A DNA stretch of 64,000 nt from Dehalococcoidia bacterium (GTDB taxonomy: Bacteria; Chloroflexota; Dehalococcoidia; DSTF01; JALHUB01): positions 4,014-68,013 of the forward strand of contig DAOULP010000114.1 of assembly GCA_034420175.1 (NCBI GenBank), written 5' to 3'. Shown piece by piece: positions 37,066-60,347 of this stretch. The translations under genes were made by a program, and so were the position numbers. Every line of letters begins with the position of its first letter. The stretch's first letter is position 1. The notes under the pieces are model-generated. The model was not told the DNA's origin, did not search any database, and saw only the letters and a list, made by a program, of their open reading frames with translations.

Positions 37066-37070
37066 TCTCC

Positions 37071-37544: not shown

Positions 37545-37681
37545 TCAGCAGCCCTTCCTCTCCATGTGATCTTTTCTGGGAAAACCCGTACAGGGTCTCA
37601 GATTGGGCTGGCAGCGCTCGGCGTCCGCCGTCGAGCCCAAAAACATCGACCGCCTCCCCCCGGTCCCCAGAGCGGGGCTCC

Positions 37682-38002
37682 CTAGCGTCCACGGCTGGCC
37701 TCACGCACTGCCGCCTCGAAGGCCGAGATGATGGACCAGTTGACGAGGACCAGGAGGCGGTCATCCGGCAGCCCTCGCAGGGACTTCGGCAGGTGGGGGC
37801 GTAGCTCGGCCAGCACAGAGGCCACCGTCCGGTCCAGGGGTACTCCCAGCGCGACGAGGAGTTCCGCCTTGTGGTCGTGGAGGGCCCGGCGCAGGTCCTC
37901 CGGAAGGGGGCTCGCCCTGCCACGCACCAGCAGCCGGTCGTTCTCCACCACCAGGTCGGCGTCGTGGGCCCGCACCTTCTCGATGATCTCGATGGCGTTC
38001 AC
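37682..38002 (-). CDS. Small hypothetical protein (106 aa) between the primase and the small terminase
   Basis: Protein-like ORF (MNAIEIIEKVRAHDADLVVENDRLLVRG...). Its stop overlaps the primase region by 4 nt. Confidence 0.45.
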   Translation of the reverse strand: MNAIEIIEKVRAHDADLVVENDRLLVRGRASPLPEDLRRALHDHKAELLVALGVPLDRTVASVLAELRPHLPKSLRGLPDDRLLVLVNWSIISAFEAAVREASRGR

Positions 38003-42830: not shown

Positions 42831-42906
42831 GCCCCCGTAGCTCAGTTGGATAGAGCACCGGCCTCCGGAGCCGGGTGCGTGGGTTCGAGTCCCGCCGGGG
42901 GTACCA
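42831..42906 (+). tRNA. tRNA-Arg (anticodon CCG), CCA encoded
   Basis: GCCCCCGTAGCTCAGTTGGATAGAGCACCGGCCTCCGGAGCCGGGTGCGTGGGTTCGAGTCCCGCCGGGGGTACCA. Cloverleaf has a 7-bp acceptor stem, D-arm GCTC/GAGC, anticodon stem CCGGC/GCCGG with loop CTCCGGA, and T-arm GGG..TTCGAGT..CCC. Confidence 0.85.
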
Positions 42907-44341
42907 TACCCACACAAGTTGGTCGGCACATATCACGCCGAATCACAAACAGCGGCTCGAACTCCGGCCACGGGCGGACCCAGAGCCGCTTGCCGCGAGT
43001 ATCTATCCTCACCCACTGGAACAAGATGCGGCAGGCCTCCCGCCGCTCTTCCATCGTCATCCCGTTCCACACCTGGCCGATGCTGGTCAGCCGCTCTCCG
43101 GCGAAGCGGACGACGTCCGGAGAGCCGACCGGTAGCCGGGCGAGACGATCATCGATGGCCTGCAGCTGAAGCCGCCATTCCTGCTCGGACAGCGCTGCTT
43201 CGACGTAGGCCATCGTGGCTCTCCGCTTCTTGGCCTCCAGTTCCGTTCGCTCACCGTCGTCGTGCTTGGGCAAGCGTCGCGCTTCGCGGTCGATCTCCGC
43301 CAGCCAGTCGCGGTCCATCGCCATCTCGTGGATGATTCGGTCGACCTCGGCCTCCGCCTGCTCGCACCGCCACATAGCCCCAGCGATGGGGCAGGGATCC
43401 CCGCGCAGGTGGGAAGTCTCCCGGTAGTAGGCGTATCGGTTGCCCGTCCCTGACTTGGTTTGGTGGATCGGTCCGTCGCACTCAGAGCACCGGGCGAGGC
43501 CCGAGAGCATTCGCGGCTGCCGGGCGTGAGAGGACTGCCTCCGCACGCGCTGTTGAGCTGCCAGCCACAGGTCCTCCGTGGTGATGGCCTCGTGCGCTCC
43601 CCGGCGGCGCTCGCCCTTGTAGTGCACGAATCCGGCGTAGAAGTCGTTCTCGATGATCGACTGCACAGCGGAGACTGTGAACGTCGTGTGGCCCTGCTTG
43701 GAGTGCGGGCGGAGTCCCTGCGCGTTCCAGCGGCGGGCGATCTCCGTGTAGCCCGCGCCGGCGGCATAGTCGCGCACGGCTTCCGCGATCGCTGCTGCCT
43801 CCTCGGGCACCGGCACCAGCGGATGCTTGGTGGTTTCCCCCCTGCGATAGCCAAATGGAACATCCCCGACATGTAGCCCCAGCTCGAACCGCTCCCGCAT
43901 CGACTTCTTGATGTGGAAGCTCATCTTGCGAGACCAGTACGAGCCAAGGCTCAGGTCGATGCCGAGCATCATGCGCCCTTCGGGCGTGTGGTAGTCAATG
44001 TCGGGGCTAGAGGCGTTGACGAGTTTGATGTCGTTCCGATCGAGGAGATTGAAGATACCGTGTCCCAATTCCTCGTCGCGGGCGAAGCGGCTTAGGTCGT
44101 GCACAAGCAGGACATCGATGACGTGTTGCTCCACGTCACGCTTGATATCAAGCATCGTCTTGCGCTTGCCGATTTCGTTGGTGAAGGCGGATTCACCGGC
44201 GCCGATGTACTCGCGGACCACCTGCCAGCCTCTTTGCCGACAGAGGTTCCCAATCACCCGGCGCTGGGCGTCCAGCGACAGTCGCTCGCTCAATGCCTGA
44301 TCGGCGTCACTCACTCGGAGAAGCCGGCCCGCTCGTGTCAT
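42842..44341 (-). CDS. Large serine recombinase (integrase); the ORF's last ~21 codons overlap the tRNA-Arg gene
   Basis: N-terminal resolvase catalytic domain LLRVSDADQALSERLSLDAQRR...VVREYIGAGESAF...IDVLLVHDLSRFAR. Recombinase domain ...GDVPFGYRR...F.R. Zn-ribbon-like LARCSECDGPIH. A coiled-coil follows. Confidence 0.85.
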   Translation of the reverse strand: MTRAGRLLRVSDADQALSERLSLDAQRRVIGNLCRQRGWQVVREYIGAGESAFTNEIGKRKTMLDIKRDVEQHVIDVLLVHDLSRFARDEELGHGIFNLLDRNDIKLVNASSPDIDYHTPEGRMMLGIDLSLGSYWSRKMSFHIKKSMRERFELGLHVGDVPFGYRRGETTKHPLVPVPEEAAAIAEAVRDYAAGAGYTEIARRWNAQGLRPHSKQGHTTFTVSAVQSIIENDFYAGFVHYKGERRRGAHEAITTEDLWLAAQQRVRRQSSHARQPRMLSGLARCSECDGPIHQTKSGTGNRYAYYRETSHLRGDPCPIAGAMWRCEQAEAEVDRIIHEMAMDRDWLAEIDREARRLPKHDDGERTELEAKKRRATMAYVEAALSEQEWRLQLQAIDDRLARLPVGSPDVVRFAGERLTSIGQVWNGMTMEERREACRILFQWVRIDTRGKRLWVRPWPEFEPLFVIRRDMCRPTCVGMVPPAGLEPTHPAPEAGALSN

Positions 44342-46018: not shown

Positions 46019-46086
46019 CCGCTATCGTGATTGTGTCAGAAGTCCGAGTTCAGGCCGGCGTCGCCTGCTGTCCAGCCGGAGCACGA

Positions 46087-47013
46087 CTACACCCCAATAG
46101 CCTCCGCTACCTTCCCCCAGCTCCGATCCTCCTGCCCCTCCAGCCGCCGGAGGTACACCGTCGTCACGGCCAGCGAGCTGTGGTCCAGGAACCGGCTCAC
46201 GTCCTCCACCGTCTCTCCCACGTCCCGCCTGAGCTTGGCCGCGGCGTGCCGCAGGATGTGGACACCAGCGGGGGGCAGTCCCGCCTTCCTGAGATACCGC
46301 CTGAGGTTGCCGTAGAAGGTGCCGCTGGTGACGCCCCGTCCGTTGCGGGTGCTAGAGGGCCACAGTGACTCGTCCGGGCTCACTGTCGCCAGGTCCTTGC
46401 CGAAGGCTGCCAGCGCCACCTGGATGGCCTCGAAGGCCGGGCGAGGCAGCTCCCGCTTGCCCTGCTTGCCGCCCTTGCCCCGATAGGTGTAGAACAGCCC
46501 GCCAGCCTGGGAGATGTCGCCTGCCGTCAGGTTCAGGACCTCGGAGCGGCGCCGGCCGGTCAGGGTGAGGGTGAGGATGATGGCCCGGTCCCGCAGGCCA
46601 GTCGCCGTGTCAGGGATCACGTCCAGCAGTCGTCGAATCTCCTCGGCGCTGAGTCCTCGGGGCGGGCTGAGGGAGGTCTTGGGGCGCTCGATCGCATCGC
46701 AGGGGTTGGACGCGACGATCTCCATCCGGATCAGGAAGCGGTAGAAGGAGGAGAGGCAGGCCAGCCGGGCCCCGATGGTGACGGGCGAGGGCTCCTTGCC
46801 TGACAGCCCCTTGCCGTAGGCCCAGGCGAAGACCTCCTGGCTCGTGACCTGATGGGGCGGCTTGCCCAGGGTGCCGAAGAAGTGCTGGAGCATTCTGGAG
46901 TAGCCCTCGACGGTGCGGCGGGAGCCTGAGCGGCGCTCCTTCTCGGCGAGGAAGGCGTAGAGGGTACGTTCCCAGCCGGCGGCGTCCTGGAAGGGTGCGA
47001 TGGTGGTAGCCAT
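46087..47013 (-). CDS. Tyrosine site-specific recombinase/integrase (copy 2, intact)
   Basis: MATTIAPFQDAAGWERTLYAFLAEKERRSGSRRTVEGYSRMLQHFF...HILRHAAAKLRRD...HSSLAVTTVYL. ~90% identical in nucleotides to 2366..3254. GAGGAG RBS. Confidence 0.9.
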   Translation of the reverse strand: MATTIAPFQDAAGWERTLYAFLAEKERRSGSRRTVEGYSRMLQHFFGTLGKPPHQVTSQEVFAWAYGKGLSGKEPSPVTIGARLACLSSFYRFLIRMEIVASNPCDAIERPKTSLSPPRGLSAEEIRRLLDVIPDTATGLRDRAIILTLTLTGRRRSEVLNLTAGDISQAGGLFYTYRGKGGKQGKRELPRPAFEAIQVALAAFGKDLATVSPDESLWPSSTRNGRGVTSGTFYGNLRRYLRKAGLPPAGVHILRHAAAKLRRDVGETVEDVSRFLDHSSLAVTTVYLRRLEGQEDRSWGKVAEAIGV

Positions 47014-47057
47014 GGTCGGTCTCCTCGCGCTAGAATCGTCATGACCATATTGCGATT

Positions 47058-47870
47058 GTGTGCGAGGAAGTCAAGCAAGGCAGTCAACCCCGGGTGAGCC
47101 GCTTCGCCGACCTTCTAGCAGAGTCCTTCCCTTCGATCGCCGCGAGTCCCGTGGATAGCTCGTGCCTGCTCTCGAAGCACTACCATCACGACCGGCCAGA
47201 GCTCGATCCCATATCCGAGGCCGTGGAGATCGTGGACACGTTCGGCCAGCGTGGAGCTCTGGTACGACGGCTCAGACTCCAACACCCGTCAGGAGATGTG
47301 CACAAAGAGCAGTTCGACTTGCGGGCCCTGGACGTGATGACGGAAGCCTGCGCGTTCGCTTGGGCCGCGACGGTGGCGCTGCTCGGGACGCCTTCGTTTG
47401 TTGACCAGGATGGCGCTCCGGACCTGCTCTGCGACTCTGGCTGGTGGGTCGAGGCCAAGGGAATCCATGAGTCGCGTGAGGAAAGTGAGCTGCGGCGTCG
47501 GATGCTCGCGACAGGTGAGATCACCGGGGGCCCGGTGCAGGGTCCGGGCCCCGGCCTCGTGGCCAAGTTCCGGTCGGCCTTTGGGGACGCCTACCGCAAG
47601 TTCCAACGTCAGGGGAATGGGCTCCTGGCCGTGTTCTTCAACCTGACATCGCTTGACATTGCCCAGTGGGCGATGAAGGACGACGTCTTGGCCGATCTCG
47701 TTCGGAGCATAGATTCCATGACCCGGGCGGTGCCAAGTACCGCCGTCACATTGTGCTACGCCTACGATTGGAGGCGATCCTGGTGGCGACCCGACATTGA
47801 ATCGCCGACGGGGGCCCTGCCCTCACAGGCCAAACACGAGGTGGACGATGAGAACTCCCCTGCTCTCTGA
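47058..47870 (+). CDS. Hypothetical protein (~260-270 aa), divergent from integrase 2
   Basis: GTG start within the conserved integrase-upstream region (an alternative GTG lies ~47091). Protein-like throughout. No motif recognised. Confidence 0.5.
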   Translation: MCEEVKQGSQPRVSRFADLLAESFPSIAASPVDSSCLLSKHYHHDRPELDPISEAVEIVDTFGQRGALVRRLRLQHPSGDVHKEQFDLRALDVMTEACAFAWAATVALLGTPSFVDQDGAPDLLCDSGWWVEAKGIHESREESELRRRMLATGEITGGPVQGPGPGLVAKFRSAFGDAYRKFQRQGNGLLAVFFNLTSLDIAQWAMKDDVLADLVRSIDSMTRAVPSTAVTLCYAYDWRRSWWRPDIESPTGALPSQAKHEVDDENSPAL

Positions 47871-48633
47871 TTGGATATGGGTAAGGCCCGGGCTGGTTCT
47901 CGCTGCCGCCGTGCTCGGGTACGGTGCATGGGCTGGCGTTTCGAGAGACCCTTGGTTCGACAATGGGGAGCAATTCCTGGCAGCTTTCGCGATCGCCTTG
48001 GCTGTCCTGGCTGTCTGTCCAGTCATACTGGCGTGGGGGAGCTCGCCTACTCCTCTGATAGAAGCAGCCACAACTCTCCCAAGACCCATTCGGGTTCAGG
48101 AACTCGCGGTGCATCATCTGGCGGTGTGGAACTATGAGGTTCGGCCTGCCATTCGTCCGCTGGTGCTGCGTGTGGCGCCGGAAGGGTGCCAGATTAGGGT
48201 CCGATACACAAACGTCGAGACGCAAGGGCAGATGTTGGGGGCCGAGTGGCTATTGGCCCGCTGGAATGACAACCAGGAACCGGTGACGGAGGTCGGTGGC
48301 CACCTAAGTCTGCCCTCGATGATACGCAATCGCCGACTGCAGCCCAAGCTGTTCCCGAGTGAACCGAAGGGGCATCGCAATGCGTATCCGTTCACAGTTG
48401 CGTTTGCCATCAAGCGTCGCGGCGATGAATGCTTCTATCACTTCTGCGACGAGTCCTACCAGTGGGGGGGCGATGAGGGCTTGTGGCTCAACCCTGACTG
48501 GAGACTGCCCAAAGGGACCTACCGGGTGGACGTCGAACTCACGGGATATGGTCTGGTTCATCCATCAGCCGCCGCCTTCCGCCTCCGCAATGAAGGCCCG
48601 CGGCATGAGGACTTTGTTCTCGAACCTTGGTGA
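47848..48633 (+). CDS. Membrane-anchored hypothetical protein (two N-terminal TM helices plus a soluble domain)
   Basis: ATG (MRTPLLSDWIWVRPGLVLAAAVLGYGAW...FLAAFAIALAVLAVCPVILAW) overlaps the upstream gene's end by ~20 nt. The C-terminal ~200 aa are of unknown function. Confidence 0.5.
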   Translation: MRTPLLSDWIWVRPGLVLAAAVLGYGAWAGVSRDPWFDNGEQFLAAFAIALAVLAVCPVILAWGSSPTPLIEAATTLPRPIRVQELAVHHLAVWNYEVRPAIRPLVLRVAPEGCQIRVRYTNVETQGQMLGAEWLLARWNDNQEPVTEVGGHLSLPSMIRNRRLQPKLFPSEPKGHRNAYPFTVAFAIKRRGDECFYHFCDESYQWGGDEGLWLNPDWRLPKGTYRVDVELTGYGLVHPSAAAFRLRNEGPRHEDFVLEPW

Positions 48634-48816
48634 GGGTGAGCAGAGCTCCGAGGGGAAGGGACATCGGACCACGCACGATGACCTGATCGTGGGTGCCCAG
48701 CCCCGCCTCAGGGCGCGCACGAGCCCCAATGACGGCATGCCGCGGGTGTCCGAGTCGCCTTGCCATCAGACTGGCGCGGACGCATAATTGCGTCGCTCGG
48801 GGGACGTGTACATGTC

Positions 48817-51800
48817 ATGTGCGCCATCGAACGACGGCTAGAGGAGTGGAAGCGGCGCCTTCTTGACTTGTCTGGGCGCAACCCGTTGCTGTACTTCGGG
48901 CGAACCCGAAGAACAGCGGTCCAGATCACCTCGCCGTCAGTCGTCGACCTCTGCAACGGACTCTGGGATGGGAGGCGACTTCGTTTCCCTGAGCCGCATC
49001 AGGGTACACTCCTCGATCTGCTTGCCTCCGAGGAGGAAGAGGATGGCTCCAGGCGGGCTCAGTCTCGGCCTGGCGACGTTGAGACGCCGCTGGATGTGGA
49101 TGACCTCCAGCGCAAGTTGAGTCGCCTCCGGTCACAAGCGCGCAGCTCCATCGAAGAACAAGGGATAAACACCCTCTACCTGGCAGTGGGGATGTTAGAG
49201 TGGCGCGAGTCAGATTCCGCCGAAGAGCACGTGCGATCCCCTTTGGTCCTGATTCCCGTGGCGCTGAGGTACGAGCGCAACAGGCCGTTCCTGTTGGAGG
49301 CACTCGACGAGGACATTGCGAACAACGCGGCACTGGGGTATCGACTGGAACTCGACTACCACATGCAGCTGCCTGCCCTGCCTGACCCGGAGCAACTAAC
49401 GGGCGAGGCTGTGCGGGCTTATCTAGCCGACGTCGAACGCCTGGTAGTCGGGCGGGGCTGGCGGGTTCTGCGGGAATCCTGGATAAGCATCTTCTCCTTC
49501 GAAAGCCTGGTGCTCTATCGCGACATTGCGGACAACGCCGAACGGTACTCTGCGCACCCGGTTCTGCAGTGGCTTGCTGGAGATACGAAGCCGGACGATG
49601 GGGGTACGGTGGACCTGAGCGATACGGACTCCACGGTGGATCCGGGCGAGGTCTTCCCAGTGCTGGATGCGGACGACAGCGAGCTAGAGGTCCTTCTGAG
49701 AGCGAGATCGGGCCAGAACCTGGTGGTCCACGGGCCTCCGGGTACTGGCAAGAGTCAGACCATCGCCAATCTGATAGCTCAAAGCGTGCGGGACAGGAAG
49801 ACCGTCCTCTTCGTGAGCAGGAAGATGGCAGCCCTCGAGGTAGTATACGACCGGCTGCAACGGGCCGGCCTTGAAGATGTGTGTCTGGAGGTCCACAGCC
49901 ACCGGTCGAACAAGCGGGAGGTCATACGAAGGCTAAATGACTCTCTGGAGCGCGGGCCGTTTCGCGCTGCTTACGCTGCGGAGGAGTTCGCCCGGCTCAG
50001 CAGATTGAGAGAGAGGCTCAATGCCTACGCAAGGGCTCTGCGACAGCCAGCCGACGCCAGAGGACGTTTCCCCTACCAGATCTACGGGGTCTTGGCCAAG
50101 CTCTGGGATGCTCCAAGTGTGAAGGCCCCGGTTGCCTCCAGGGAAGCGGTTGAGCTCAATCCACAACGGGAGGATGAACTGACGTCGGCGATTCAGCAGC
50201 TCGCAGACTTGGCTCATGTCTTTGACGGTATGGACAGTCATCCCTGGCGGGGTGCCGCTGTTCGGAGGGTCGACCCGCAATCCCGACTACAGCTTGAGGA
50301 CTCACTGCGAGCTGCTTCGCGGACCTTGCCTGACATCGTCTCAGTCTGGGGCCCCTTGGCGGATCTGACAGGCCTGGCGGGGCCTTCCTGTGCGCTTCAG
50401 GTCCCGCGGGCTGCCGCGGTTGCGGAACACCTCACCTCGACGCCCCGCCTACCTGGGAGCCTCTCCACACTGGCCTCGGACGAGATCGCCACTCTGGCCC
50501 GCAGAGTGCGCCGCATTAGCAAACGCCGCACGCGGATGCTCGAGGCGCGGGAGCGGTACCGGGAGCACTTCTCTGATCAGGTCCTGGACCTCCCGGTCGC
50601 TGAAATCGAAGAGCGTTACCGGACGGCGTATCGGGCCATCATTCGCTTTCTGATGCCATCCTATCGGCGAGATGCCGCTCAATTGCGCTCCGTGTCAGCC
50701 ACGGGTGCGCCCATCCGCTTCGGCGCGGCCGCCGAGGGGCTTGCTGCATGCGTTGAGTACATAGGACACCGGGGGTGGCTGACTTCCCAGGCGGAGTCGC
50801 TCCGCGATGTTCTTGGGCTCCTGGTGGAGGATGGCGCCGATAGCGCCTGGCAGGACATCGAGGGTGCGCTCGATTGGATAAGTCAACTCCTGCGATTGCT
50901 CGAATCGGACGCCTTGCCCGAAGCACTTAGTCAAACGGCAGACCGAAGTGCGCCGGCCCTGCGGGATGCCTCGAGTGGCACACTTGAGGATCTGACGCGG
51001 GCGTGGTCCCAGCTTCAGCCGTGTGTCGAGTTCCTCACGGGAGTCTTCCCCGAGGGCTTTGACGGAACACAGATCGAGTCATTCCAGTTCCCTCACCTGC
51101 TGGTGCAAACCAGCAACTGGCTCTCCTCGCTGTCCACGCTGGACGAGTGGGCCAGCTTCCGTCGTGCTCTCGATAGCTGCGAGCATCTTGGTCTGTCTCC
51201 CTTCATTGAGGACGCAAGAGACCGGGATGTGCAAGGGAGTCAACTCCCCAACGCGTTCAAGAAGGCGCTTGCCGCCGCTTGGATTACCGACGTGCAAAGC
51301 CGAGTGCCCGTACTCGCCGACTTCAATCCAGCTGAGTACGATAGACTACGCCAGGAGTTCCAACACCTGGATAGGGGGCTCCGGCGAGCGGCTGTCCATG
51401 CCACGTTGGCTAGTGCCACGGCTCAGCGACCGGAGACTGCCGCTGGTGTGGTAGCTGCCTCAGAAATAGGGATCCTCCGTCGGCAAGGCCAGTTACAGCG
51501 GCGCCACCTCCCGCTCCGGAGGCTCTTCACCGCGACACCGACCCTACTGCCAGTCCTCAAGCCGTGTCTATTGATGAGCCCGCTTTCGGTGGCGAGCTAC
51601 CTCCCCCAAGGCGTGCTCCGATTCGACCTCGTCATCTTCGACGAGGCGTCGCAGATTCCTCCGGAGGAGGCAGTCGGTGCCATAGTGCGAGGCCGTCAGG
51701 TCGTGGTGGCAGGTGACGAGAAGCAACTGCCGCCAACAAGCTTCTTCAGGGCGATGGTGGAGGACGAGGCGTCGAGCGACGACGAGGAAGAAGACCTGAC

Positions 51801-53847
51801 ACCCCTGACTGACAGCATCTTGGAGGAGTGTGTACCGCTCTTTCCCGAAGCCTACCTGTGCTGGCACTACAGGAGTCGTCACGAGAGCCTCATTGCCTTT
51901 TCCAACCGGGAGTTCTACGACCAGCGGCTCATCACATTCCCATCCCCGGATCAGAATGCCAGTGACGGTGGGGTCAGCTTCGTTCATGTGGCTGAAGGCG
52001 TCTTCGACCGAGGTGCTTCCAAGACGAACCGTGCGGAGGCTCGTCGAGTGGCCGAGATGGTCATCGATCATCTCAGAAGATGGCCGACTCGTTCCCTTGG
52101 TGTCATCACGATGAGCCTCTCACAGCAGGAGGCAGTCGACCGTGAGCTCTTTCGCTTGCGGTCGGAGAATCCAGACCTCGAAGAGGCTTTTTCGGAGGAC
52201 CGCTTCGAGCACCTCTTCGTCAAGAACCTTGAGCGCGTTCAGGGTGACGAGCGGGATGCGATCATCATCAGCCTGGGCTATGGCCGGAGTCACGATGGCG
52301 TACTTCGCATGCAGTTCGGTCCCCTTAGCCGCCCTGGCGGTCAGCGACGGCTGAATGTGGGCGTCACCAGGGGCAAGCTTCAGACAGCCCTTGTGAGCTC
52401 ACTGTTGCCCCAGGATCTCGACCTGACTCGTCTAACGACTGGAAGCCGGGACGTCGCAGTTCTCCAGCGCTATATGGAGTATGCAGCCAACGGCGGGCGT
52501 TTCTCGCCGGAGCCTTCCGAGTCCGTAGGCGAGCCAGAGTCTGAATTTGAGGAAGCGGTTCTTGAGCGGCTCACAAGGGAGGGGTTGGCGGTAGATCCGC
52601 AGGTTGGCGCATCATCGTTTCGTATCGATATGGCGATCCGTCATCCGGACCGCCCCGCACGATATATCCTCGGTGTCGAGTGCGACGGCGCCGCCTTCCA
52701 CCGCACGAAGACGGCCAGAGAGCGCGACCGGCTGCGGCAAGAAGTGCTGGAAGGGCTCGGCTGGAGGATCTTCCGAATCTGGTCTCCCGACTGGCTGCGC
52801 GACCCGGACCGTGTGGCGAGCCAAGTGACAGAGCTTGTAGACGAGCTGCGCCACACTGACGATCCAGGCATGCCGGCGTCAAATCCCGGCGCAAAGGCCG
52901 CATCCTCAGAGGAGGAGGCGCCCCCAGCCGACGACGAACTCTCGGATTGGATGGCACGTACGGGAGACGACGCAAGACAGGTGGACGGCAGCGCGCACGA
53001 CAAGCCAGAGATCTTCCCTGAGTACCAGAAGCACGTCCCGCGTGCCCAGCAGCCGCGGGATACGTTCTACTGGGCACCGGTGAGGACAATCGAGGGTCTG
53101 GTTGTGGATGCGGTCGATGTCGAGGCGCCGGTACACCAATCTGTGGTCGCGCAGCGAGTCGCCGGTGCCTTCGGCATCAGCAGAGTCGGACGGAACGTCC
53201 GAAGCATCGTCAACCGGGCTATCCAAGCTGCCGTCAGGGATGAACGAGTACGCCTGCGAGAGGAATTCCTTTGGCGTCCCGCCGACGATGAAGTGACGCC
53301 GAGGCATCCGAAGCGCGGGGAGACTCCGCGGCGGATATCGGAGATCGCACGTGAAGAGGTTGCGGCGGCTATCGAGTGGGTGCTTCGTCAGCACATGGGG
53401 ATGCCGCGGGAAGAGGTGGTACGCCAGGTCGCTCGCGGGTTGGGCTACGATCGCGTTGGCCATCACGTGCAGCGGCACATCGATGGGACTGTGGCGTGGC
53501 TGCTTGAGGGACAGCGCCTTGTTCAACGCGGCCAGGTAATCTCCCTGCCAAGGAGAGCCATTGAGGCTCGTGAACCGGTGTCACTCAGTCCTCAGAAGCG
53601 TGCCAAACGGGTACCCCCTAGGGCCGAGACCACACCAAGGATGAACAGAAGCGATCCGTTGACCGAAGTGGTGCAACGTGTGCTGTCCATGAACCTCTCA
53701 TTAGTGGACCAGCGTTCTAAGGGAGGGGCGCTTTGGGTCATCGGAGGAGAATCCCTGCGCAACCTGCTTTCCCCCCATGGCTTCAAGTTCGCCCCGAACG
53801 GAAGTCGAGCGACCAAGCACCGGCCGGCTTGGTACAGAAGCAACTAG
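48817..53847 (+). CDS. Giant SF1 (Upf1-like) helicase with DUF4011-like N-terminus, Vsr/DUF559-like endonuclease domain and C-terminal extension (~1676 aa)
   Basis: Start at MCAIERRLEEWKRRLLDLSGRNPLLYF (the ORF-track TTG start at 48760 is also possible). Walker A LVVHGPPGTGKSQTIANLI. Motif II VIFDEASQ plus VVAGDEKQLPP. YRSRHESLI, then VQGDERDAIIISLGYGR...RRLNVGVTRGK is the AAA_12-like C-terminal RecA domain. Then ...RIDMAIRHPDRPARYILGVECDGAAFH...WRIFRIWSPDW is a Vsr/DUF559-like restriction-endonuclease fold. A DUF3320-like tail follows. DUF assignments are from memory. Confidence 0.85.
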   Translation: MCAIERRLEEWKRRLLDLSGRNPLLYFGRTRRTAVQITSPSVVDLCNGLWDGRRLRFPEPHQGTLLDLLASEEEEDGSRRAQSRPGDVETPLDVDDLQRKLSRLRSQARSSIEEQGINTLYLAVGMLEWRESDSAEEHVRSPLVLIPVALRYERNRPFLLEALDEDIANNAALGYRLELDYHMQLPALPDPEQLTGEAVRAYLADVERLVVGRGWRVLRESWISIFSFESLVLYRDIADNAERYSAHPVLQWLAGDTKPDDGGTVDLSDTDSTVDPGEVFPVLDADDSELEVLLRARSGQNLVVHGPPGTGKSQTIANLIAQSVRDRKTVLFVSRKMAALEVVYDRLQRAGLEDVCLEVHSHRSNKREVIRRLNDSLERGPFRAAYAAEEFARLSRLRERLNAYARALRQPADARGRFPYQIYGVLAKLWDAPSVKAPVASREAVELNPQREDELTSAIQQLADLAHVFDGMDSHPWRGAAVRRVDPQSRLQLEDSLRAASRTLPDIVSVWGPLADLTGLAGPSCALQVPRAAAVAEHLTSTPRLPGSLSTLASDEIATLARRVRRISKRRTRMLEARERYREHFSDQVLDLPVAEIEERYRTAYRAIIRFLMPSYRRDAAQLRSVSATGAPIRFGAAAEGLAACVEYIGHRGWLTSQAESLRDVLGLLVEDGADSAWQDIEGALDWISQLLRLLESDALPEALSQTADRSAPALRDASSGTLEDLTRAWSQLQPCVEFLTGVFPEGFDGTQIESFQFPHLLVQTSNWLSSLSTLDEWASFRRALDSCEHLGLSPFIEDARDRDVQGSQLPNAFKKALAAAWITDVQSRVPVLADFNPAEYDRLRQEFQHLDRGLRRAAVHATLASATAQRPETAAGVVAASEIGILRRQGQLQRRHLPLRRLFTATPTLLPVLKPCLLMSPLSVASYLPQGVLRFDLVIFDEASQIPPEEAVGAIVRGRQVVVAGDEKQLPPTSFFRAMVEDEASSDDEEEDLTPLTDSILEECVPLFPEAYLCWHYRSRHESLIAFSNREFYDQRLITFPSPDQNASDGGVSFVHVAEGVFDRGASKTNRAEARRVAEMVIDHLRRWPTRSLGVITMSLSQQEAVDRELFRLRSENPDLEEAFSEDRFEHLFVKNLERVQGDERDAIIISLGYGRSHDGVLRMQFGPLSRPGGQRRLNVGVTRGKLQTALVSSLLPQDLDLTRLTTGSRDVAVLQRYMEYAANGGRFSPEPSESVGEPESEFEEAVLERLTREGLAVDPQVGASSFRIDMAIRHPDRPARYILGVECDGAAFHRTKTARERDRLRQEVLEGLGWRIFRIWSPDWLRDPDRVASQVTELVDELRHTDDPGMPASNPGAKAASSEEEAPPADDELSDWMARTGDDARQVDGSAHDKPEIFPEYQKHVPRAQQPRDTFYWAPVRTIEGLVVDAVDVEAPVHQSVVAQRVAGAFGISRVGRNVRSIVNRAIQAAVRDERVRLREEFLWRPADDEVTPRHPKRGETPRRISEIAREEVAAAIEWVLRQHMGMPREEVVRQVARGLGYDRVGHHVQRHIDGTVAWLLEGQRLVQRGQVISLPRRAIEAREPVSLSPQKRAKRVPPRAETTPRMNRSDPLTEVVQRVLSMNLSLVDQRSKGGALWVIGGESLRNLLSPHGFKFAPNGSRATKHRPAWYRSN

Positions 53848-54201
53848 GTTGACCGACCCTGTGGTCCAGACTTCGGCAACACCTGCCTGATCATCCCACC
53901 ACCGTGCCAGACCAGGTCCGCTGTCGCGGTCCGCGTCGCGTCTCGTGTCCGCCCGCTTTGCTGGTCCATGGCGGCGGAGCGGGGCAGTCTGAGCACTCGC
54001 CGAAGTTGCCTGTCACCATCCCCACCCAATGTGCGTTCACATCGAAGGCGGTCGAGCCAGACGTGGCGGTGGCCCAGGCCAGGCGCCGCGTGCCCCTGCG
54101 TTCCGGTAGCGGATGTTGGGCGATCCCTAACCTTGACGAACTGCGGAGCCGCGGCAAGAATGGTTGCGTATCGATCCGCAGGCTGAAGCGCGAAAGACCG
54201 A

Positions 54202-55473
54202 GTGGCAGCCATGACCGCGTTCAGATTCGTCCATACCGGTGACCTGCACCTCGACAGCCCCTTCGTCGGGCTCCAGGACATCGACGAGCGAGTGGCGCGC
54301 GAGCTACGGGAGGCCACGTTTCAGACCTTTGACCGCATCGTTGCCCTCTGCCTTGAGGGCAACGCCGACTTCCTCCTAGTCGCGGGGGACATCTATGATG
54401 GCCGTGACCGAAGTCTGCGAGCCCAACTACGGTTTCGGGATGGCCTCAGGCGTCTGAGCGAGGCAGGAATCTCCAGCTTCATCGTTCATGGCAACCACGA
54501 TCCGCTGGACACCTGGGCCGCGACCCTGGAATGGCCGGACGGTGTCCATGTCTTTGATGGAGATTCGGTCACGGCCCAGCCGGTTGAACGCAACGGCGAG
54601 ACGATCTCGCACGTGTACGGCATCAGCTACGCCACACAGGAAGTCAGAGAGAATCTCGCCAAGAGGTTTCGGCGGACCGAGGATGGCCCCTTCGCCATTG
54701 GACTGCTTCACTGCAACGTTGGCGATGACACCGGCCACGAGCCGTACGCTCCATGCAACCTGCAAGACTTGACCCGAGCTGGCATGGACTACTGGGCTCT
54801 CGGGCACGTGCACAACCACCGCATCCTGTCCATCAGGGACCCGATGATCGTGTACCCCGGCAATCCGCAGGGGCGAAACCCGCGCGAGCTGGGAGCGCGA
54901 GGATGCTACGTCGTCGAAGTCGATGAGACGGGCCACCCGACCGCCCAGTTCGTCGCCGTGGACACGGTCTGCTGGCTATGGGAGTCCGTGCCGATCGGGG
55001 AGCTTGGCACGGACGAGGAGCTAGTTTCGGTGGTCGAACGGACCTGCCAGCGGATGCGGGAGGAAGCTGAGGGCCGCTCGGTCGTCGGTCGCCTAAGTCT
55101 TACCGGTCGGGGTCCCGCCTACACGTCTCTGGCACGGCCTGGATTTGTCACCGGACTCCTCGAATCGATACGAGAGACGGAAGGCGCCGATGATCCGTTC
55201 GTCTGGATTGAACGTCTGGAAGTGGACACCCGACCGCCTCTCGACCTGGAAGCTCGCCGCGCCGGTCAGGATTTCGTGGCCGATCTTCTGACCCTGACTG
55301 AGGGCTACCGCTGGGATCCAGAGCACCTCCAATCTCTTCGGCAGCACCTCGAGCCTTTGTTCCTTCGCCGCGGACAGCGATACCTAGAAGACCCAACTGA
55401 CGAAGAGCTTACCCGATGGCTGGACAGGGCCGAGGCGATGTGTGCCGATCTGCTTACGGACGAGGAAAGCTGA
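54202..55473 (+). CDS. SbcD/Mre11-family metallophosphoesterase (YhaO-like)
   Basis: Motifs FVHTGDLHLDSPF, LLVAGDIYDG, FIVHGNHDP, GHVHN. Its stop overlaps the next gene's ATG (ATGA). Confidence 0.85.
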   Translation: MAAMTAFRFVHTGDLHLDSPFVGLQDIDERVARELREATFQTFDRIVALCLEGNADFLLVAGDIYDGRDRSLRAQLRFRDGLRRLSEAGISSFIVHGNHDPLDTWAATLEWPDGVHVFDGDSVTAQPVERNGETISHVYGISYATQEVRENLAKRFRRTEDGPFAIGLLHCNVGDDTGHEPYAPCNLQDLTRAGMDYWALGHVHNHRILSIRDPMIVYPGNPQGRNPRELGARGCYVVEVDETGHPTAQFVAVDTVCWLWESVPIGELGTDEELVSVVERTCQRMREEAEGRSVVGRLSLTGRGPAYTSLARPGFVTGLLESIRETEGADDPFVWIERLEVDTRPPLDLEARRAGQDFVADLLTLTEGYRWDPEHLQSLRQHLEPLFLRRGQRYLEDPTDEELTRWLDRAEAMCADLLTDEES

Positions 55474-58400
55474 TGCGCGTCGAGCGAATCTACATCGACG
55501 GATATGGCATCTTTGGGGACTTCACCCTGGACGAGCTATCCCCAAGGATGACGGTGCTCGTGGGCCCGAACGAGTCCGGGAAGACCACTCTCCTCTCCTT
55601 CATTCGCACGATCCTGTTTGGCTTCCTGGGCAAGCGGAGTGAGAACCCGTGCGAACCTCTGCGAGGTGGCCGGCACGGCGGTCGCATCTTCGTCACGGAC
55701 GATCGAGATGAGTCGTATGTGATTGAGCGCTTCGCCGGTCCGAAAGGCGGCGCACTTGCACTCACGCTCCCGAGCGGGGCCCCTGGCAGCGCCGCGGACC
55801 TGGCCGACCTGCTCGGTCACGCCTCCCGGGACCTCTTCCGCAACGTATTTGCCTTCAGCCTGGTGGAGCTCCAGACCTTCGACACTCTACGCAGCGAGGA
55901 CGTGCGAACCCGTATCTACGGCGCGGGGTTGGGTGCTGGGCGTCTTGACCTCCCCGAGATCGAGAAGAAGGTGCAGCAGGCCCGCGAGAGTCTATTCAAG
56001 GAGGGCGGCAGTGCACAGATCATCGCCGGGTTGATCCACAAGGCCGACGACGACCGCGCGCGGTTGCGCGCTCTCAGCGGACAGGTGGCGGAGCACGACC
56101 GCCTGCGCAGGTCGCTCGAAGGCCTGAGTCTTGCGATTGAGACGAAGCGGGAGGAGCGTCGAACCCAGCAAGCCGCGGTCTCCCACATCTCAAACCTCGT
56201 TACCGCGTGGGCCGACTGGACCGAGTTCCAGTCGGCGCAAGAGCGCCTAGGGGAGCTGCCTCAGGTCACCCGGTTCCCCGCTGACGGGATCGCGAGGCTG
56301 GAGCGTTTCGTCCAGCAGCACGACAATCTCGAGGAAAGGATCGAAGAGCTCCGAGGCGACATCACCCGCGCCGAGCAGGAGATTCACAGTACCGAAGTGG
56401 ATGAACGAGTCCTGGAGCAGGCGGCCGAGATCGAGGGACTCAAGCGGGGCCTGGACAGGTACGAGTCGGCCAGGAGTGACCTGCCAAGGCGGCAAACCGA
56501 GATCGAGGGCGCCTTGGATGGTCTTGAGGAGGAACTGAGGGGTCTGGGCACCGGCTGGGACGAGGCGCGCGTCAACGCATTCGATACGTCCCTTCCCACC
56601 CGTGAGGCCGTGCGGGGCTTTGGCGAGCAGCTCGAGGACAGCGCCAGCCGACTGCACGACGCTGAGCGGGATGCGGAGCATGCCCGGCAGAGTCTGCAGG
56701 GCACACGCTCCGAGCACGGTCGCCTGGAGCAGGAACTGAAGGAACTCGGGGAGCCGCCGGAGCGGGACCGTGGAATCCTTGACGAACGCCGGCGCAAGCT
56801 GCGGGAACTGCGCGGTATCCTCTCAGCTCATGCCACGAGTCAACAGAAGCTGGAGCACTTGGAGGAGCGCAAGGTTGACCTAAGCTCGCGAATCGAATGG
56901 CTCGGACGACAAGCAGCACGCAAGGCGCATTCGCTGTCAACGTGGCCCGCCATCGCCCTGCCTTTGGGCGGGAGCGCCATTGCTGCGGTGCTCGCGGTTT
57001 TGGTCGGATGGGTTACTGCGGTGGTGATCTCCGTGAGCGGCCTGGTCGCGGGTCTGATCTACGCCGGTCTGCGCATCTGGCTGAAGACACGTGCCGGGCT
57101 CGAACTGATCGACGCAGAACTGGAGAGCCTGTACGGCCAGCTGGCCGGCATCGAGAAGCAGGCGACCGCGGTCAATTCCGACGTCAAGGAAGAGGCCAAC
57201 TCGATGGAGCGTCTGGCCCAAGATGTTGGATTCCACGGCGCCGATACGCGGAACCTCGACGCTGCAGACGATGCGCTAGAGAGGGACATCGAGACTCTGA
57301 GAGAGTGGGAAGCTGCCGGCCAGCGGGTCAAGGAGGCTACCCAGCGGATCGAGGGACTGGAGGAACATGTACGGAAGGCAGAGGAGGCGGCTAGTCGAGC
57401 TCAGAGCCATGACCAGAAGGCGAGGGAGGCCTGGGATGCGTGGCTGGGCAGCCGCAACATTGACCTGACAACGAGCCCCGACACATGCCTGGAGCTGCTC
57501 TCGCGGGTGGACACCCTTCGGGGGAAAGTCAAGGCGATCGATGGCCTGAGAACGCGGATAGGCGCAATTGAGAAAGCGTTGCTGGATTTCGAAGAGCGAA
57601 CGAACCTGGTACGCCAAGCGTGCGACCGACAGGCCGAGGACCGGAGCGGCTTCCCCCGCGCGACTGATGAACTGATCGAAGCATCCAACGCCGCGCGGCA
57701 GGATTCCGAGCGCGTTAGACAGCTGCGAGAGGAGATTGAGACAGCTGCCAGCAGGAAGAAGACCCGCGAGACGACGGCCAAGGAAGTGGAGGCGGGTATT
57801 TCGGGGCTGTTGTCGGAGGCGGGCGCTGCTAACCAAGAGGACTTCCGCCATCGAGCGGACATCTTTAGCGAGCGCGAGAAGCTGCTGCAGGCTGTCAGGG
57901 AGCGCCGCAGGAACTTGGAGCGGATCGCCGGACGCGACAGGGTCCTTGAGGCGTTCATGAAAGAACTCGAGACCGCCGACCCCGAACAGCTGTACCAGGC
58001 GAAGCAGGAGGCCGAGGAGTGGCTCGCGAGCACCGAGGAAGAACTGGCGACGATGGAGCGTGAGAAGGGTCAAGTGATGGAGCAACTCCGCCAGCTCGAG
58101 ACACAAGAGGAGTCATCCAGGCTTCGACTGCGACTCTCGGTGCTGAGAGAGCAGATCAGTGCCGAGGCGGAGAAGTGGTCCGTGCTGACGATCGCGAAGG
58201 CGATGCTCGAGGAAACACGACTGAAGTACGAGAGGGAACGCCAGCCGGCCGTGATTCAGGAAGCTCAGGCCTTCTTCTCGAGCTTCACCAATGGCAGATA
58301 CGTACGCATCTTCTCACTGCCCGGCGAGAATCGCGTCGAAGTAGAGGACCAGACGGGAGCGAGGAAGGACATCCCCGATCTCAGCCGCGGCACTGCCGAA

Positions 58401-58652
58401 CAGCTCTATCTTGCCCTCCGCTTCGGTCTCGTGCGCGAGTTCGCTAGACGAGCTGAGCCACTGCCAGTGGTGATGGACGACATCCTCGTCAACTTCGACC
58501 CCGAGCGGGCGCGCGAGGCGTGCCGCGCGCTTGGTGGACTATCGAAAGATCAGCAGGTGTTGCTCTTCACATGCCATCCGGAGACAGTCGAGTTGCTGCA
58601 GTCCGAGGTGCAGGACTGCAAGGTCATCGAACTCCATCTCGAAAACAGGTAG
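55473..58652 (+). CDS. SbcC/Rad50-like AAA ATPase with long coiled coils (YhaN-like)
   Basis: MRVERIYIDGYGIFGDF...TVLVGPNESGKTTLLSFIRTILFG is the Walker A. ~800 aa of coiled coil with two central hydrophobic segments (AIALPLGGSAIAAVLAVLVGWVTAVVISVSGLVAGLIYAGL). C-terminus ...LYLALRFGL...PVVMDDILVNFD is the signature/Walker B/D-loop. Confidence 0.85.
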   Translation: MRVERIYIDGYGIFGDFTLDELSPRMTVLVGPNESGKTTLLSFIRTILFGFLGKRSENPCEPLRGGRHGGRIFVTDDRDESYVIERFAGPKGGALALTLPSGAPGSAADLADLLGHASRDLFRNVFAFSLVELQTFDTLRSEDVRTRIYGAGLGAGRLDLPEIEKKVQQARESLFKEGGSAQIIAGLIHKADDDRARLRALSGQVAEHDRLRRSLEGLSLAIETKREERRTQQAAVSHISNLVTAWADWTEFQSAQERLGELPQVTRFPADGIARLERFVQQHDNLEERIEELRGDITRAEQEIHSTEVDERVLEQAAEIEGLKRGLDRYESARSDLPRRQTEIEGALDGLEEELRGLGTGWDEARVNAFDTSLPTREAVRGFGEQLEDSASRLHDAERDAEHARQSLQGTRSEHGRLEQELKELGEPPERDRGILDERRRKLRELRGILSAHATSQQKLEHLEERKVDLSSRIEWLGRQAARKAHSLSTWPAIALPLGGSAIAAVLAVLVGWVTAVVISVSGLVAGLIYAGLRIWLKTRAGLELIDAELESLYGQLAGIEKQATAVNSDVKEEANSMERLAQDVGFHGADTRNLDAADDALERDIETLREWEAAGQRVKEATQRIEGLEEHVRKAEEAASRAQSHDQKAREAWDAWLGSRNIDLTTSPDTCLELLSRVDTLRGKVKAIDGLRTRIGAIEKALLDFEERTNLVRQACDRQAEDRSGFPRATDELIEASNAARQDSERVRQLREEIETAASRKKTRETTAKEVEAGISGLLSEAGAANQEDFRHRADIFSEREKLLQAVRERRRNLERIAGRDRVLEAFMKELETADPEQLYQAKQEAEEWLASTEEELATMEREKGQVMEQLRQLETQEESSRLRLRLSVLREQISAEAEKWSVLTIAKAMLEETRLKYERERQPAVIQEAQAFFSSFTNGRYVRIFSLPGENRVEVEDQTGARKDIPDLSRGTAEQLYLALRFGLVREFARRAEPLPVVMDDILVNFDPERAREACRALGGLSKDQQVLLFTCHPETVELLQSEVQDCKVIELHLENR

Positions 58653-59510
58653 CACCGCCTGCGACACCCGCAGCTTGCGGGCTCATGCGCGCGCGTTTGG
58701 GGGCCTTGGGAATCCCGGTCGAGTACAGCGGGAATCGTGAGACGTCACTGATACTGCCCAGGGACTCCCCGCCTCCGAGCGTATTGCTGCGCCAAGACGC
58801 GCTGCTGGCTCAGTCGCGAAATGCGGACGTCCCATGTGCCGCATGGCCCGGCGGGGCGAGAGCGGAGCCGCTCTCCCAGTGGGCTCCGCAAGCATCACAG
58901 GTCCCAGAAGAACCGCGCAACTACGGAACGAAAGAACCTCTCTCGGACCATCCTGGATGCGATTTCTGATGCTGGCGGAGAGCTGTTGCGGCGGTGAGTC
59001 CAACGAGGATTTCACGGCCGCAGCGCAGCATTGCAGGAACGGTTCGATTGAACCCCCTCGGCACAGTATGCAGACTCAGTGGGGTTTCTTGGCGCCCACA
59101 CCATTTGGCCATAGTGTGGTCTTGGCAAGCTCGTCAAGTGTCAACGCTGACCGCAGCGGCGCGTCTGTCGGCTGTGTGCCTTGGAACCCGCCGACCCCTT
59201 CACCTCCCCCCGAGCAGCATTCTGAGGTGCGCACTGCTGTGGTTGAGGTTCCCGCCGTTCAGGGGTCGGTCTGCGACAGCAGGGCGCGAGTCTGATGCCG
59301 CCTAGTGGCCTCGGCGATCGCGCTTTCGCGCTCGCTGGTCAGAAGGCCGAGAACAGCGGCGTCGTCCTCGGAGGGGACAGACAAGACGAGGCTGCCATCG
59401 CGTGGCAGTCACTGTTGTTGTGGGCTACAGGAGGGATAGCAGGAGTCGACCCAACAGCTCCACGTCAAGGTGTCCGCCACCGTGCCCCGTCGCCGTTCGA
59501 TGCGGCCTCC

Positions 59511-60347
59511 TCAGGTTCGCGGCACGCGCCGGCCGGAAACTCCAGGCCCCGAGAACAAGCCAGACGCAATCAACACGCCACTGGCCATGATGCCCAAGAC
59601 GGCCCCCGGTGCCTCTGACCAAGGAACAGGCGAATACCAGAGGAATGCCTCTGTTCTGGTCCCGTACCAAGTGATTCCAAGGCCCACCAAGCCTAGCATC
59701 AGGTAGGTCACGGCCACCACACCAGACCGCTGCTGAGATTGCGACAGCGCTCGGGAAAGGGCCAGAAGAGCACCAACGACACCCACCACAGGTATCAGCA
59801 GGACCACACTGTACATACGTAGGCCTTCGCCGGTGAGGCATGGCCTGCCAAACAAGGGATCGGTGCAGCTGACAAGCGACCACCACGCGTTGGCGAGGCT
59901 AACAGACCTGCGCGCTCCGTCATCCCACCATGTGCCAACGGCTGGGATGAAGAACGACCCCGCTAGAGCTGCGCTGCCGCCGAGCGCAAGCAAGTCAGGT
60001 ACCCACGTGGTCCTTGTAGCCGCCGAGTCACTGCTCGGGCTGGCCTCGCGAGCCTTTGCTGCCCGCGCTGGACCGGTGTCATCTGCCGTCGGCGCATTGG
60101 AGCACTCATAGCAGTGGCCAGGTCGCCGCGTACGCAGCTTGTCGGTCACACCAAGAACCTTGCCGCAGGACGCGCAGGTTTCGAGAGGCGGCAGCGGCTT
60201 GGGCTCCTCGCGAGGTCCTGGCGACGGAGCATAGTTCCAACGACGCTCGGCAAAGCAGGAATTGCAGAGCCTTGGCATCCGCGACTTCTCCTCTACAGAC
60301 AGATCGAGCCTGCCACACCCCTCGCATCCGCCCCGTGTGTGCGCCAT
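59511..60347 (-). CDS. Membrane protein with N-terminal double zinc-ribbon (CxxC...CxxC x2)
   Basis: MAHTRGGCEGCGRLD...CNSCF...CASCGKV...CYECS, followed by 4-5 hydrophobic helices. Function unknown. Confidence 0.5.
   Translation of the reverse strand: MAHTRGGCEGCGRLDLSVEEKSRMPRLCNSCFAERRWNYAPSPGPREEPKPLPPLETCASCGKVLGVTDKLRTRRPGHCYECSNAPTADDTGPARAAKAREASPSSDSAATRTTWVPDLLALGGSAALAGSFFIPAVGTWWDDGARRSVSLANAWWSLVSCTDPLFGRPCLTGEGLRMYSVVLLIPVVGVVGALLALSRALSQSQQRSGVVAVTYLMLGLVGLGITWYGTRTEAFLWYSPVPWSEAPGAVLGIMASGVLIASGLFSGPGVSGRRVPRT

Follow-up and report, generated by a model that had tools for sequence, protein, structure and literature searches.

A PDC-S37-type helicase–nuclease beside a YhaO/YhaN-like gene pair in a Dehalococcoidia bacterium: two probably independent units that adjoin

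Proteins that unite a superfamily 1 (SF1) helicase with a Vsr-like nuclease include Hhe, which is said to have been first reported by Gao et al. in 2020. According to a 2024 preprint, hhe is a single-gene helicase and nuclease defence whose triggers are DNA-metabolism genes of T7, and T7 and Bas63 mutants are restricted by it. The nuclease domain MTES_1575 has a Vsr-family restriction-endonuclease fold, DUF3320 overlaps winged-helix domains, and direct recognition of invading DNA without a modification partner has been proposed for proteins of the MTES_1575/DUF3320 type (Anantharaman et al. 2013). A second class of proteins concerns us here: SbcE (YhaN) was defined in Bacillus subtilis by a hydrophobic central domain with a conserved proline, the lack of a CxxC motif and an upstream SbcD-like gene, SbcF (YhaO) (Krishnamurthy et al., PMC2811018). 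SbcE and SbcF are placed in the double-strand-break repair class, their role in break repair or competence coming from B. subtilis genetics only (PMC2811018). Representatives of both classes stand next to each other in a stretch of 64,000 nucleotides (nt) from a Dehalococcoidia bacterium (assembly GCA_034420175.1, contig DAOULP010000114.1, positions 4,014 to 68,013 of the forward strand), which we call the window and from whose first letter all positions are counted. We analysed the interval 47058–58652, where a gene for a helicase–nuclease of 1676 amino acids (aa) is followed by a gene pair for a metallophosphoesterase and a coiled-coil ATPase, hereafter the pair.

We consider it most likely, at a probability of roughly 0.68, that the interval consists of two independent functional units that happen to adjoin. 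The first (~47.04–53.85 kb) would flank a conserved tyrosine integrase on its variable, defence-type side, with a PD-(D/E)xK-like gene, a small gene and the helicase–nuclease; the second (54.13–58.65 kb) would be a YhaO/YhaN (SbcF/SbcE) operon with translational coupling and a likely promoter of its own. The distribution of the two units shows no obligate linkage. The pair was found in none of 11 other helicase loci (the 2 nearest, 6 on plasmids and 3 chromosomal), and among about 155 other pair loci one contained a full-length helicase and one a helicase remnant. We thus found no conserved co-occurrence of the kind tested for an obligate three-gene system, and a preliminary description of the window, which had presented the helicase and the pair as one module, does not agree with these counts.

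The genes were called in two assemblies, the second being GCA_964632905.1 (contig CAZWDW010000003.1, in reverse orientation relative to the window), and the proteins were annotated with Pfam (gathering cut-offs), PADLOC, NCBIfam (curated cut-offs), a sequence search of PDB, and Foldseek against PDB. All genes of the preliminary description exist, and the calls of the second assembly reproduce the coordinates of the helicase, the metallophosphoesterase, the ATPase and the two genes upstream. The features of the helicase and the pair are the following:

48817–53847, plus strand: helicase–nuclease, 1676 aa (Pfam, PADLOC PDC-S37, motifs)
48856–49347, plus strand: DUF4011 of the helicase, aa 14–177 (Pfam)
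49732–49755, plus strand: Walker A GPPGTGKS of the helicase, aa 306–313 (motif)
aa 942–945 of the helicase, plus strand: DEAS (motif)
from residue 966 of the helicase, plus strand: GDEKQLPP (motif)
aa 1011–1194 of the helicase, plus strand: AAA_12 (Pfam)
52546–52833, plus strand: Vsr-like MTES_1575 nuclease of the helicase, aa 1244–1339 (Pfam)
53059–53205, plus strand: DUF3320/winged helix-turn-helix of the helicase, aa 1415–1463 (Pfam)
up to aa 1676 of the helicase, plus strand: clade-specific C-terminal tail
54133–54161, plus strand: promoter-like site TTGACG-17-AAGAAT (consensus scan)
54211–55473, plus strand: YhaO/SbcF-like Mre11-family metallophosphoesterase, 420 aa (Pfam Metallophos, five motifs)
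55473–58652, plus strand: YhaN/SbcE-like SMC-type ABC ATPase, 1059 aa (Pfam AAA_27 and AAA_23)

The domain make-up proposed earlier for the helicase, DUF4011 with an Upf1-like SF1 core and a Vsr/DUF559-like nuclease, was recovered in full: Pfam matched DUF4011, AAA_11/AAA_12, MTES_1575 (also DUF559) and DUF3320, and the quoted motifs are present. As the DUF4011, SF1 helicase, MTES_1575 and DUF3320 families all exceed their gathering cut-offs, the protein belongs to the DUF4011/DUF3320 helicase–nuclease superfamily. Its sequence matches in PDB are Upf1, IGHMBP2 and Nam7, and about 630 residues are inserted between helicase motifs I and II. The PADLOC profile PDC-S37 was matched end to end (E=0, 1405 bits, residues 22–1595 on profile positions 5–1545 of 1550), the next PADLOC match being a partial one to Hhe at 600 bits. 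With the NCBIfam profile ProA (NF058533) the helicase reached 1327 bits against a cut-off of 1500 and covered positions 357–1903 only, positions 1–356 missing, and with Hhe (NF042953) it reached 872 bits against a cut-off of 2000, the best stretch being residues 690–1369. Two positive controls, the helicases of a Candidatus Sericytochromatia locus (L128) and of a Mesorhizobium sp. AR10 plasmid (L173), passed the ProA equivalog cut-off with 1860 and 2144 bits. Because the match to PDC-S37 is end-to-end and the scores for ProA and Hhe fall below their cut-offs, we assign the helicase, by its profile matches, to the PDC-S37 subfamily, as a short-N-terminus sister of ProA and Hhe and an orthologue of neither.

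Comparison with these three families gives a graded picture. The helicase has the size and domain order of PDC-S37, a single-gene candidate of PADLOC-DB v2, but carries an extra tail of ~80 aa (residues ~1595–1676) that is otherwise found only in its closest relatives. Homology to ProA extends across the whole protein and includes the helicase, Vsr-like nuclease and DUF3320 regions; true ProA members (L128, Mesorhizobium), however, have ~2000 aa, and the window protein lacks the part that corresponds to the first 356 profile positions. With Hhe (also PADLOC PDLC02194), which acts as a single gene, it shares the DUF4011 label, the SF1 core and the Vsr-like nuclease, and the C-terminal two-fifths align, whereas its N-terminal half belongs to a different subfamily. 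The first 310 aa gave a confident model (predicted local distance difference test, pLDDT, 84) that had no Foldseek match in PDB (best E 0.07). We also observed a weak match (E=1.9e-4) of tail residues ~1584–1660 (window ~53566–53796) to the C-terminal "EH signature" region of ZorC; this ZorC-like tail occurs solely in the closest relatives, those at 57–72% identity. A full-text literature search did not find the source publication of the name ProA.

If the protein works as its domains suggest, the Upf1-like SF1 motor would translocate along DNA, the C-terminal winged-helix region (DUF3320) would bind DNA and the Vsr-like PD-(D/E)xK domain would cut it. By analogy with Hhe, the trigger would probably be a product of phage DNA replication or recombination and not a specific phage protein.

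The helicase lies downstream of an integrase (int2) whose position, as described earlier, Pfam confirmed. The features on this side of the helicase are the following:

46087–47013, minus strand: int2, tyrosine integrase, 308 aa (Pfam Phage_integrase and SAM_1)
47043–47075, plus strand: 33-nt motif GACCATATTGCGaTtGTGTGCGAGGAAGTCAAG (alignment of four integrase copies)
47058–47870, plus strand: PD-(D/E)xK nuclease-like gene, 270 aa (homologue alignment and AlphaFold2, AF2, model)
48109–48633, plus strand: small gene, 174 aa as called in GCA_964632905.1 (without family match)

The integrase is highly conserved, and the genome has at least three copies of it: besides int2 there are int1 in the window (2364–3254/4678–4823), 90.7% identical to int2 at the nucleotide level, and one on a different contig that is 96% identical in amino acids. 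More than 100 protein clusters at 76–96% amino acid identity come from Dehalococcoidia-like metagenomes. The 33-nt motif lies ~30 nt upstream of the integrase ATG, and in an alignment of int1, int2, the L003 copy and the L005 remnant the homology between copies ends exactly there. Its 18-nt core GTGTGCGAGGAAGTCAAG has 2 exact matches in the window vs 0.09 expected. The motif recurs in loci L003, L005 and L184 and twice per locus in L185/L186, and it was absent from every pair-only locus searched. At the 5' side of every integrase copy stands the motif GACCATATTGCGnTnGTGTGCGAGGAAGTCAAG (window 2364–4823 and 46085–47075; L184 5928–6916; L003 17147–18140; L185/L186 6080–9930), and the defence-type genes past the motif differ copy by copy: a DndB/DpdB-like protein, a methyltransferase and a 1186-aa protein at int1; Dcm and Vsr in L184; Nmad2, SLFN_AlbA_2 and an Eco57I-type enzyme in L185; and the 270-aa gene, the 174-aa gene and the helicase at int2. 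The 3' side of the integrase is conserved: it has a helix-turn-helix (HTH) or MarR protein and a small conserved protein, joined in several copies by a large serine recombinase. Since the copies bear differing defence-type genes past the motif and a conserved other flank, the helicase is part of an integrase-associated defence hotspot.

The two closest relatives of the helicase, both at 72% identity (P0002 and P0003), have a comparable setting: they lie 2–6 kb from an int2-type integrase or its 33-nt motif, and both are without the pair. Next to the P0003 helicase are an RNase_T gene and an integrase that shares 91% identity with int2; the P0002 helicase lies 6 kb from a 5'-end remnant of an int2-type integrase and has GmrSD, a Type ISP restriction enzyme, an OLD-family ATPase and an AddAB-like pair as neighbours. 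The motif may be a recombination site or a promoter/operator, and the integrase with its motif resembles either an integron-like platform or a defence hotspot marked by a recombinase; the helicase-side flank would be either cargo within a mobile element or a preferred target region. An integron-like reading of the motif in the window was tried and rejected, each integrase in the window having a single motif copy and the helicase not being followed by an attC-like repeat. Between 42.8 and 62 kb we found no copy of the tRNA-Arg 3' end and no flank repeats other than chance 11–12-mers, and no att repeats; an Rfam scan found the tRNA-Arg alone. In an empty-site comparison, no relative of the pair shared either flank with the window. 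Since the window consists of variable DNA throughout, GC content is uninformative.

Other copies of the integrase gave observations of their own. In L185/L186 two tandem degenerate motif copies bracket the Nmad2 gene. The 5' end of int1 is split by a 1.4-kb insertion (3255–4677) with an open reading frame (ORF; 3361–4593, minus strand) for a DUF3800 protein, flanked by a 45-bp duplication (3210–3254 = 4678–4723). An 80%-identical DUF3800 gene has the equivalent place beside the integrase in L185–L187, where the integrase N-terminus is duplicated as well, and the insertion looks like a small element that targets the 5' end of int2-type integrases. Downstream of int1 (4870–14405), the plus strand encodes a DndB/DpdB-like protein (5961–7478), a 436-aa protein of unknown type, an N6/N4 DNA methyltransferase (8804–10066) and a 1186-aa protein without family match (10845–14405); these may form an uncharacterised modification-linked defence operon.

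Neither of the two small genes between the integrase and the helicase goes with the helicase in its relatives, and no homologue of the 270-aa gene was found in L003–L007. The first, previously classed as unknown, belongs to a family of ~130 homologue clusters. Its homologues have ~240 aa and the alignment starts at residue 14, and the true start is probably ~13 codons further in; its GC content at third codon positions (GC3) of 0.75 is typical for coding DNA. Residues E96, D122, E132 and K134 are invariant and come in the order helix-E ... P-D ... E-x-K, and the AF2 model (pLDDT 90) has an alpha-beta-beta-beta-alpha-beta topology around them that fits a PD-(D/E)xK core. From the invariant residues and the model we infer a PD-(D/E)xK nuclease-like protein, although Pfam, PADLOC, NCBIfam and Foldseek-PDB returned nothing significant. 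The second small gene has no match in Pfam, PADLOC or NCBIfam and is called differently by the two assemblies, longer readings giving 261 or 278 aa. The membrane anchor once attributed to it is probably spurious: the hydrophobic N-terminal segment exists solely in the 278-aa frame, which starts upstream at 47797, and this N-terminal extension has flat codon-position GC (GC1/2/3 0.62/0.59/0.62) and is probably not coding. The ORFs after the ATPase (58834–59618; 153 and 107 aa) likewise show flat codon-position GC, are called in one of the two assemblies only and are probably not coding.

The second unit is of a different kind. Because the nuclease gene lies upstream and the ATPase has no CxxC motif and a hydrophobic, proline-bearing central domain, the pair is, to judge from its sequence features, a member of the SbcE/SbcF (YhaN/YhaO) class, which agrees with the SbcD-like phosphoesterase and SbcC-like coiled-coil ATPase with a central hydrophobic hairpin that had been described. 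The two genes overlap by 1 nt (agcTGATGcgc), with GAGGA just upstream, and on this basis appear translationally coupled, as had been proposed, through TGATG and not ATGA. The nuclease matched Pfam Metallophos at 56 bits and archaeal Mre11 structures in PDB at E ~4e-9, and it has all five Mre11/SbcD motifs (D11-x-H13, D60, N95-H96, H167 and H199-x-H201). The ATPase matched Pfam AAA_27 (PF13514) at 61 bits vs a cut-off of 22, as well as AAA_23, and has a Walker A motif (GPNESGKT), a signature motif (LSRGT), a Walker B motif (VVMDD) and an H-loop; its sole match in PDB covers the P-loop region. It has long coiled coils, and at their apex a hydrophobic hairpin of 47 residues (491–537; nt 56943–57083) that begins with WPAIALP. 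A hydrophobic segment was present at relative position 0.45–0.48 in all 120 ATPase homologues retrieved, of which a single one had a central CxxC. Homologues of the ATPase are named YhaN by JGI and "YhaN family protein" by NCBI.

The pair resembles SbcE/SbcF of B. subtilis in the order of nuclease and ATPase, in the SbcD-like nuclease, in the lack of CxxC and in an SMC-like ATPase with coiled coils of ~300–450 aa and a hydrophobic central domain with a conserved proline. The ATPase, however, is only 24–28% and the nuclease 33–36% identical to Bacillaceae homologues, no yhaM-like HD gene follows downstream in the window, and function was tested in B. subtilis alone, whereas the organism of the window is a Chloroflexota metagenome-assembled genome. 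With SbcCD and Mre11-Rad50 the pair shares the calcineurin-fold nuclease with its motifs and the coiled-coil ABC ATPase; the ATPase, however, is without the CxxC zinc hook, and both proteins score below all NCBIfam cut-offs for SbcD, Mre11 and Rad50 (sbcd 50.6 vs 77.65; Rad50 and Mre11 models 16–44 bits vs 500–1087). Lamassu, Gabija and Hachiman, to which the locus had been likened, share with it only a general plan, in which a nuclease goes with an SMC/ABC ATPase or a helicase, and the PADLOC scores speak against membership. For Lamassu, the best LmuB match was partial, at 47.9 bits in the coiled coil, with no LmuA match to the Metallophos protein and no LmuC partner; for Gabija, GajA matches of the ATPase span only residues 20–74 (the P-loop) with no TOPRIM, GajB matched the helicase at E=0.008 and a GajB-like partner is absent; for Hachiman, PADLOC listed no HamA or HamB matches.

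If it functions as in B. subtilis, one protein of the pair would be a Mn-dependent nuclease of the Mre11 type and the other an ABC ATPase like Rad50 or SbcC, whose arms meet at the hydrophobic hairpin instead of a zinc hook, and the complex would process DNA ends and hairpins with ATP in double-strand-break repair. A gap of 364 nt separates it from the helicase, and the promoter-like site in this gap is consistent with a transcription unit of its own. A second such site (48760–48788) precedes the helicase; both come from a consensus scan only, which found 3 sites vs 1.7 expected.

To place the pair, we surveyed 80 metagenome loci and 79 loci of species-representative genomes with a relative of the ATPase, the latter spanning Chloroflexota, Acidobacteriota, Nitrospirota, Gemmatimonadota, Planctomycetota, Bacillota, Pseudomonadota and methanogenic archaea. 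In 75 of the 79 genome loci the ATPase gene is directly preceded by the nuclease gene, and so it is in all metagenome loci whose sequence reaches far enough upstream. The small flanking genes of the window had no homologues in any surveyed locus. In 76 loci the immediate neighbours belonged to 133 different Pfam families, the commonest being short-chain dehydrogenases (adh_short), glycosyltransferases and transporters, and no integrase, transposase or restriction-modification family was among the 25 most frequent. Some settings were those of DNA repair or housekeeping: AlkB and an exonuclease, or, for pairs at 46% identity (L010–L013), hisB, holB, nusB and rpmF; the classical order yhaO-yhaN-HD(yhaM) was recovered in a lactobacillus record, and a further record has a PD-(D/E)xK nuclease and a helicase near the pair. 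Because the two genes stay paired across loci with heterogeneous neighbours, the pair is an autonomous, ancient two-gene unit whose commonest company is ordinary or DNA-repair genes. The preliminary description had said that these would be core repair genes if they were the only SbcCD-like ones in the genome and syntenic in relatives outside mobile contexts; relatives of the pair are indeed found away from mobile DNA, which bears this out in part, and the closest ones have no shared synteny.

Observations on the linkage of the two units, on the company kept by the pair and on the helicase family weigh against a reading as two independent units with a defensive first one. The adjacency itself recurs in unrelated lineages. 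In Candidatus Sericytochromatia (L128; 27–16310) a 2000-aa helicase lies directly and divergently beside the pair, with RecQ past the helicase and a UvrD-family helicase past the pair; divergent adjacency is also found on plasmids of Mesorhizobium sp. AR10 (L173 2387–13441), M. amorphae and M. loti NZP2037; and in a SAR202 locus (L152) the pair lies 2.2 kb from what is left of a helicase/nuclease, a remnant of 384 aa. A naive estimate predicts ~0.02 chance adjacencies in ~170 loci vs the two independent cases seen, the window not counted; it assumes one copy in about one-fifth of genomes, ~3000 genes per genome and immediate neighbours, and takes no account of the tendency of accessory genes to cluster or of the limited gene space of plasmids. 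The excess over chance is, on this rough estimate, a lead and not evidence for a system. It would suit a cooperating three-gene system, in defence or repair, in which the helicase opens or nicks the target and the SbcEF-like complex degrades the ends as RecBCD/AddAB do after restriction, and so would a Mesorhizobium genome (sp. 131-3-5) that has both partners, on different plasmids, and the AddAB-like pair near the L005 helicase. We regard such a system as improbable, given that more than 95% of the loci of either partner are without the other, most rhizobial plasmids carry just one of them, orientation and spacing vary among the cases (in the window the two units run in the same direction), the window has the 364-nt gap with its promoter-like site and the closest relatives of both partners are unlinked. 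Similarly doubtful to us is a looser version, in which helicases of the ProA and PDC-S37 types and SbcE/SbcF-like complexes are facultative partners, adjacent in at least three phyla (Chloroflexota, Sericytochromatia and those of the Mesorhizobium plasmids). If it were true, the helicase–nuclease would make ends or nicks that a hook-less, possibly membrane-tethered SbcEF complex degrades or repairs, and an anti-phage family would have a previously undescribed link to a poorly understood repair complex.

The company of the pair is less ordinary near the window than in the survey at large. All four members of the closest group (the window, L014, L008 and L009) have defence or mobile genes within 10 kb: the L014 pair (79% identity) has a pst-phoU operon on one side and, on the other, an Eco57I-type enzyme together with Gabija-like OLD and UvrD genes, the L008 pair (71%) lies beside NERD-UvrD, DUF2779 and NOV_C genes, and the L009 pair (55%) beside plasmid-type, PIN and GIY-YIG genes. 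Since ~237 plasmid records also carry the pair, it may be accessory in the clade of the window. It is conceivable from this that the pair is itself an accessory anti-phage or anti-plasmid nuclease of variable regions and plasmids, acting on linear or hairpin foreign DNA independently of the helicase; according to a recent preprint, Mre11-Rad50 complexes threaten hairpin-ended phage genomes, and phages encode inhibitors (10.1101/2025.06.15.659773). We think this unlikely: PADLOC has no specific model for the pair, its best match being the partial one to the LmuB coiled coil at 48 bits, the adjoining genes in the 76 loci are chiefly metabolic, and some settings are the housekeeping and repair ones named above (hisB/holB/nusB, AlkB and an exonuclease, yhaM). 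Of the defence role first proposed for the locus, the part that concerns the helicase is supported, as it belongs to a catalogued anti-phage candidate family and lies in an integrase-linked defence region; the pair is not demonstrably defensive.

For the helicase, too, there is a competing account, namely that it is an enzyme of genome maintenance and not an immune protein, the locus then being a loose DNA-repair cluster. The family is very large (more than 6500 clusters), and its DUF4011 gene is core in Pseudomonas aeruginosa, present in every isolate. Family members stand beside MutS, Ku or RecQ in some genomes, so that a defence role is uncertain; of three chromosomal homologues among ordinary genes, one adjoins MutS and one is near Ku, and the L128 member lies between RecQ and the pair, with the UvrD-family gene past the pair. 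The helicase locus also recurs in Ralstonia megaplasmid records; 118 Ralstonia records match, and all ten among the matches listed share one match pattern. A full-text literature search found no publication testing PDC-S37 and no experiment on PDC-S37-type proteins. Against this account, which seems to us a little less probable still than the alternatives above, the helicase clade of the window follows an integrase among restriction and abortive-infection-type genes, and six plasmid-borne homologues lie beside CRISPR-Cas I-E, DUF4297-HerA, SIR2, RecD-like or WYL genes and transposases; none of these six and the three chromosomal loci contains the pair. Its relatives Hhe and ProA, moreover, are named anti-phage in curated libraries, and Hhe restricts the phage mutants mentioned at the outset. 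We therefore keep to a defence-type unit and an autonomous repair-class pair that happen to adjoin.

Elsewhere in the window, a minus-strand cluster of defence or effector type (16329–22077) encodes a 533-aa protein of unknown type, a TIR-HEAT protein (17927–18655), a metallo-beta-lactamase (18742–19935) with LmuA/Avs1a-like matches whose DNA is 75% identical to an L003 gene, a caspase-like peptidase (20031–20882) and a secreted SNase-Excalibur nuclease (21244–22077). The region 28205–40638 encodes an RHS-repeat toxin of 1744 aa, a fusion of ParB with an N6/N4 methyltransferase (35812–37188) and an 879-aa Prim-Pol/PriCT protein (37999–40638); these genes, upstream of the tRNA-Arg (42831–42906) and a large serine recombinase (42962–44341), point to another mobile element.

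The window adds a Chloroflexota member to a catalogued, uncharacterised family of helicase–nuclease defence candidates. The adjacent Mre11/Rad50-like genes belong to the widespread SbcEF class and are not a new defence partner, and recognising this averts a false call of a new system. For defence-gene hotspots in Dehalococcoidia-like genomes, the integrase and its 33-nt border motif look like a marker that can be reused. What is unusual is only that ProA-type helicases and SbcEF-like pairs adjoin repeatedly and in different phyla, an adjacency that, rare as it is, offers a testable hypothesis on how either protein works.

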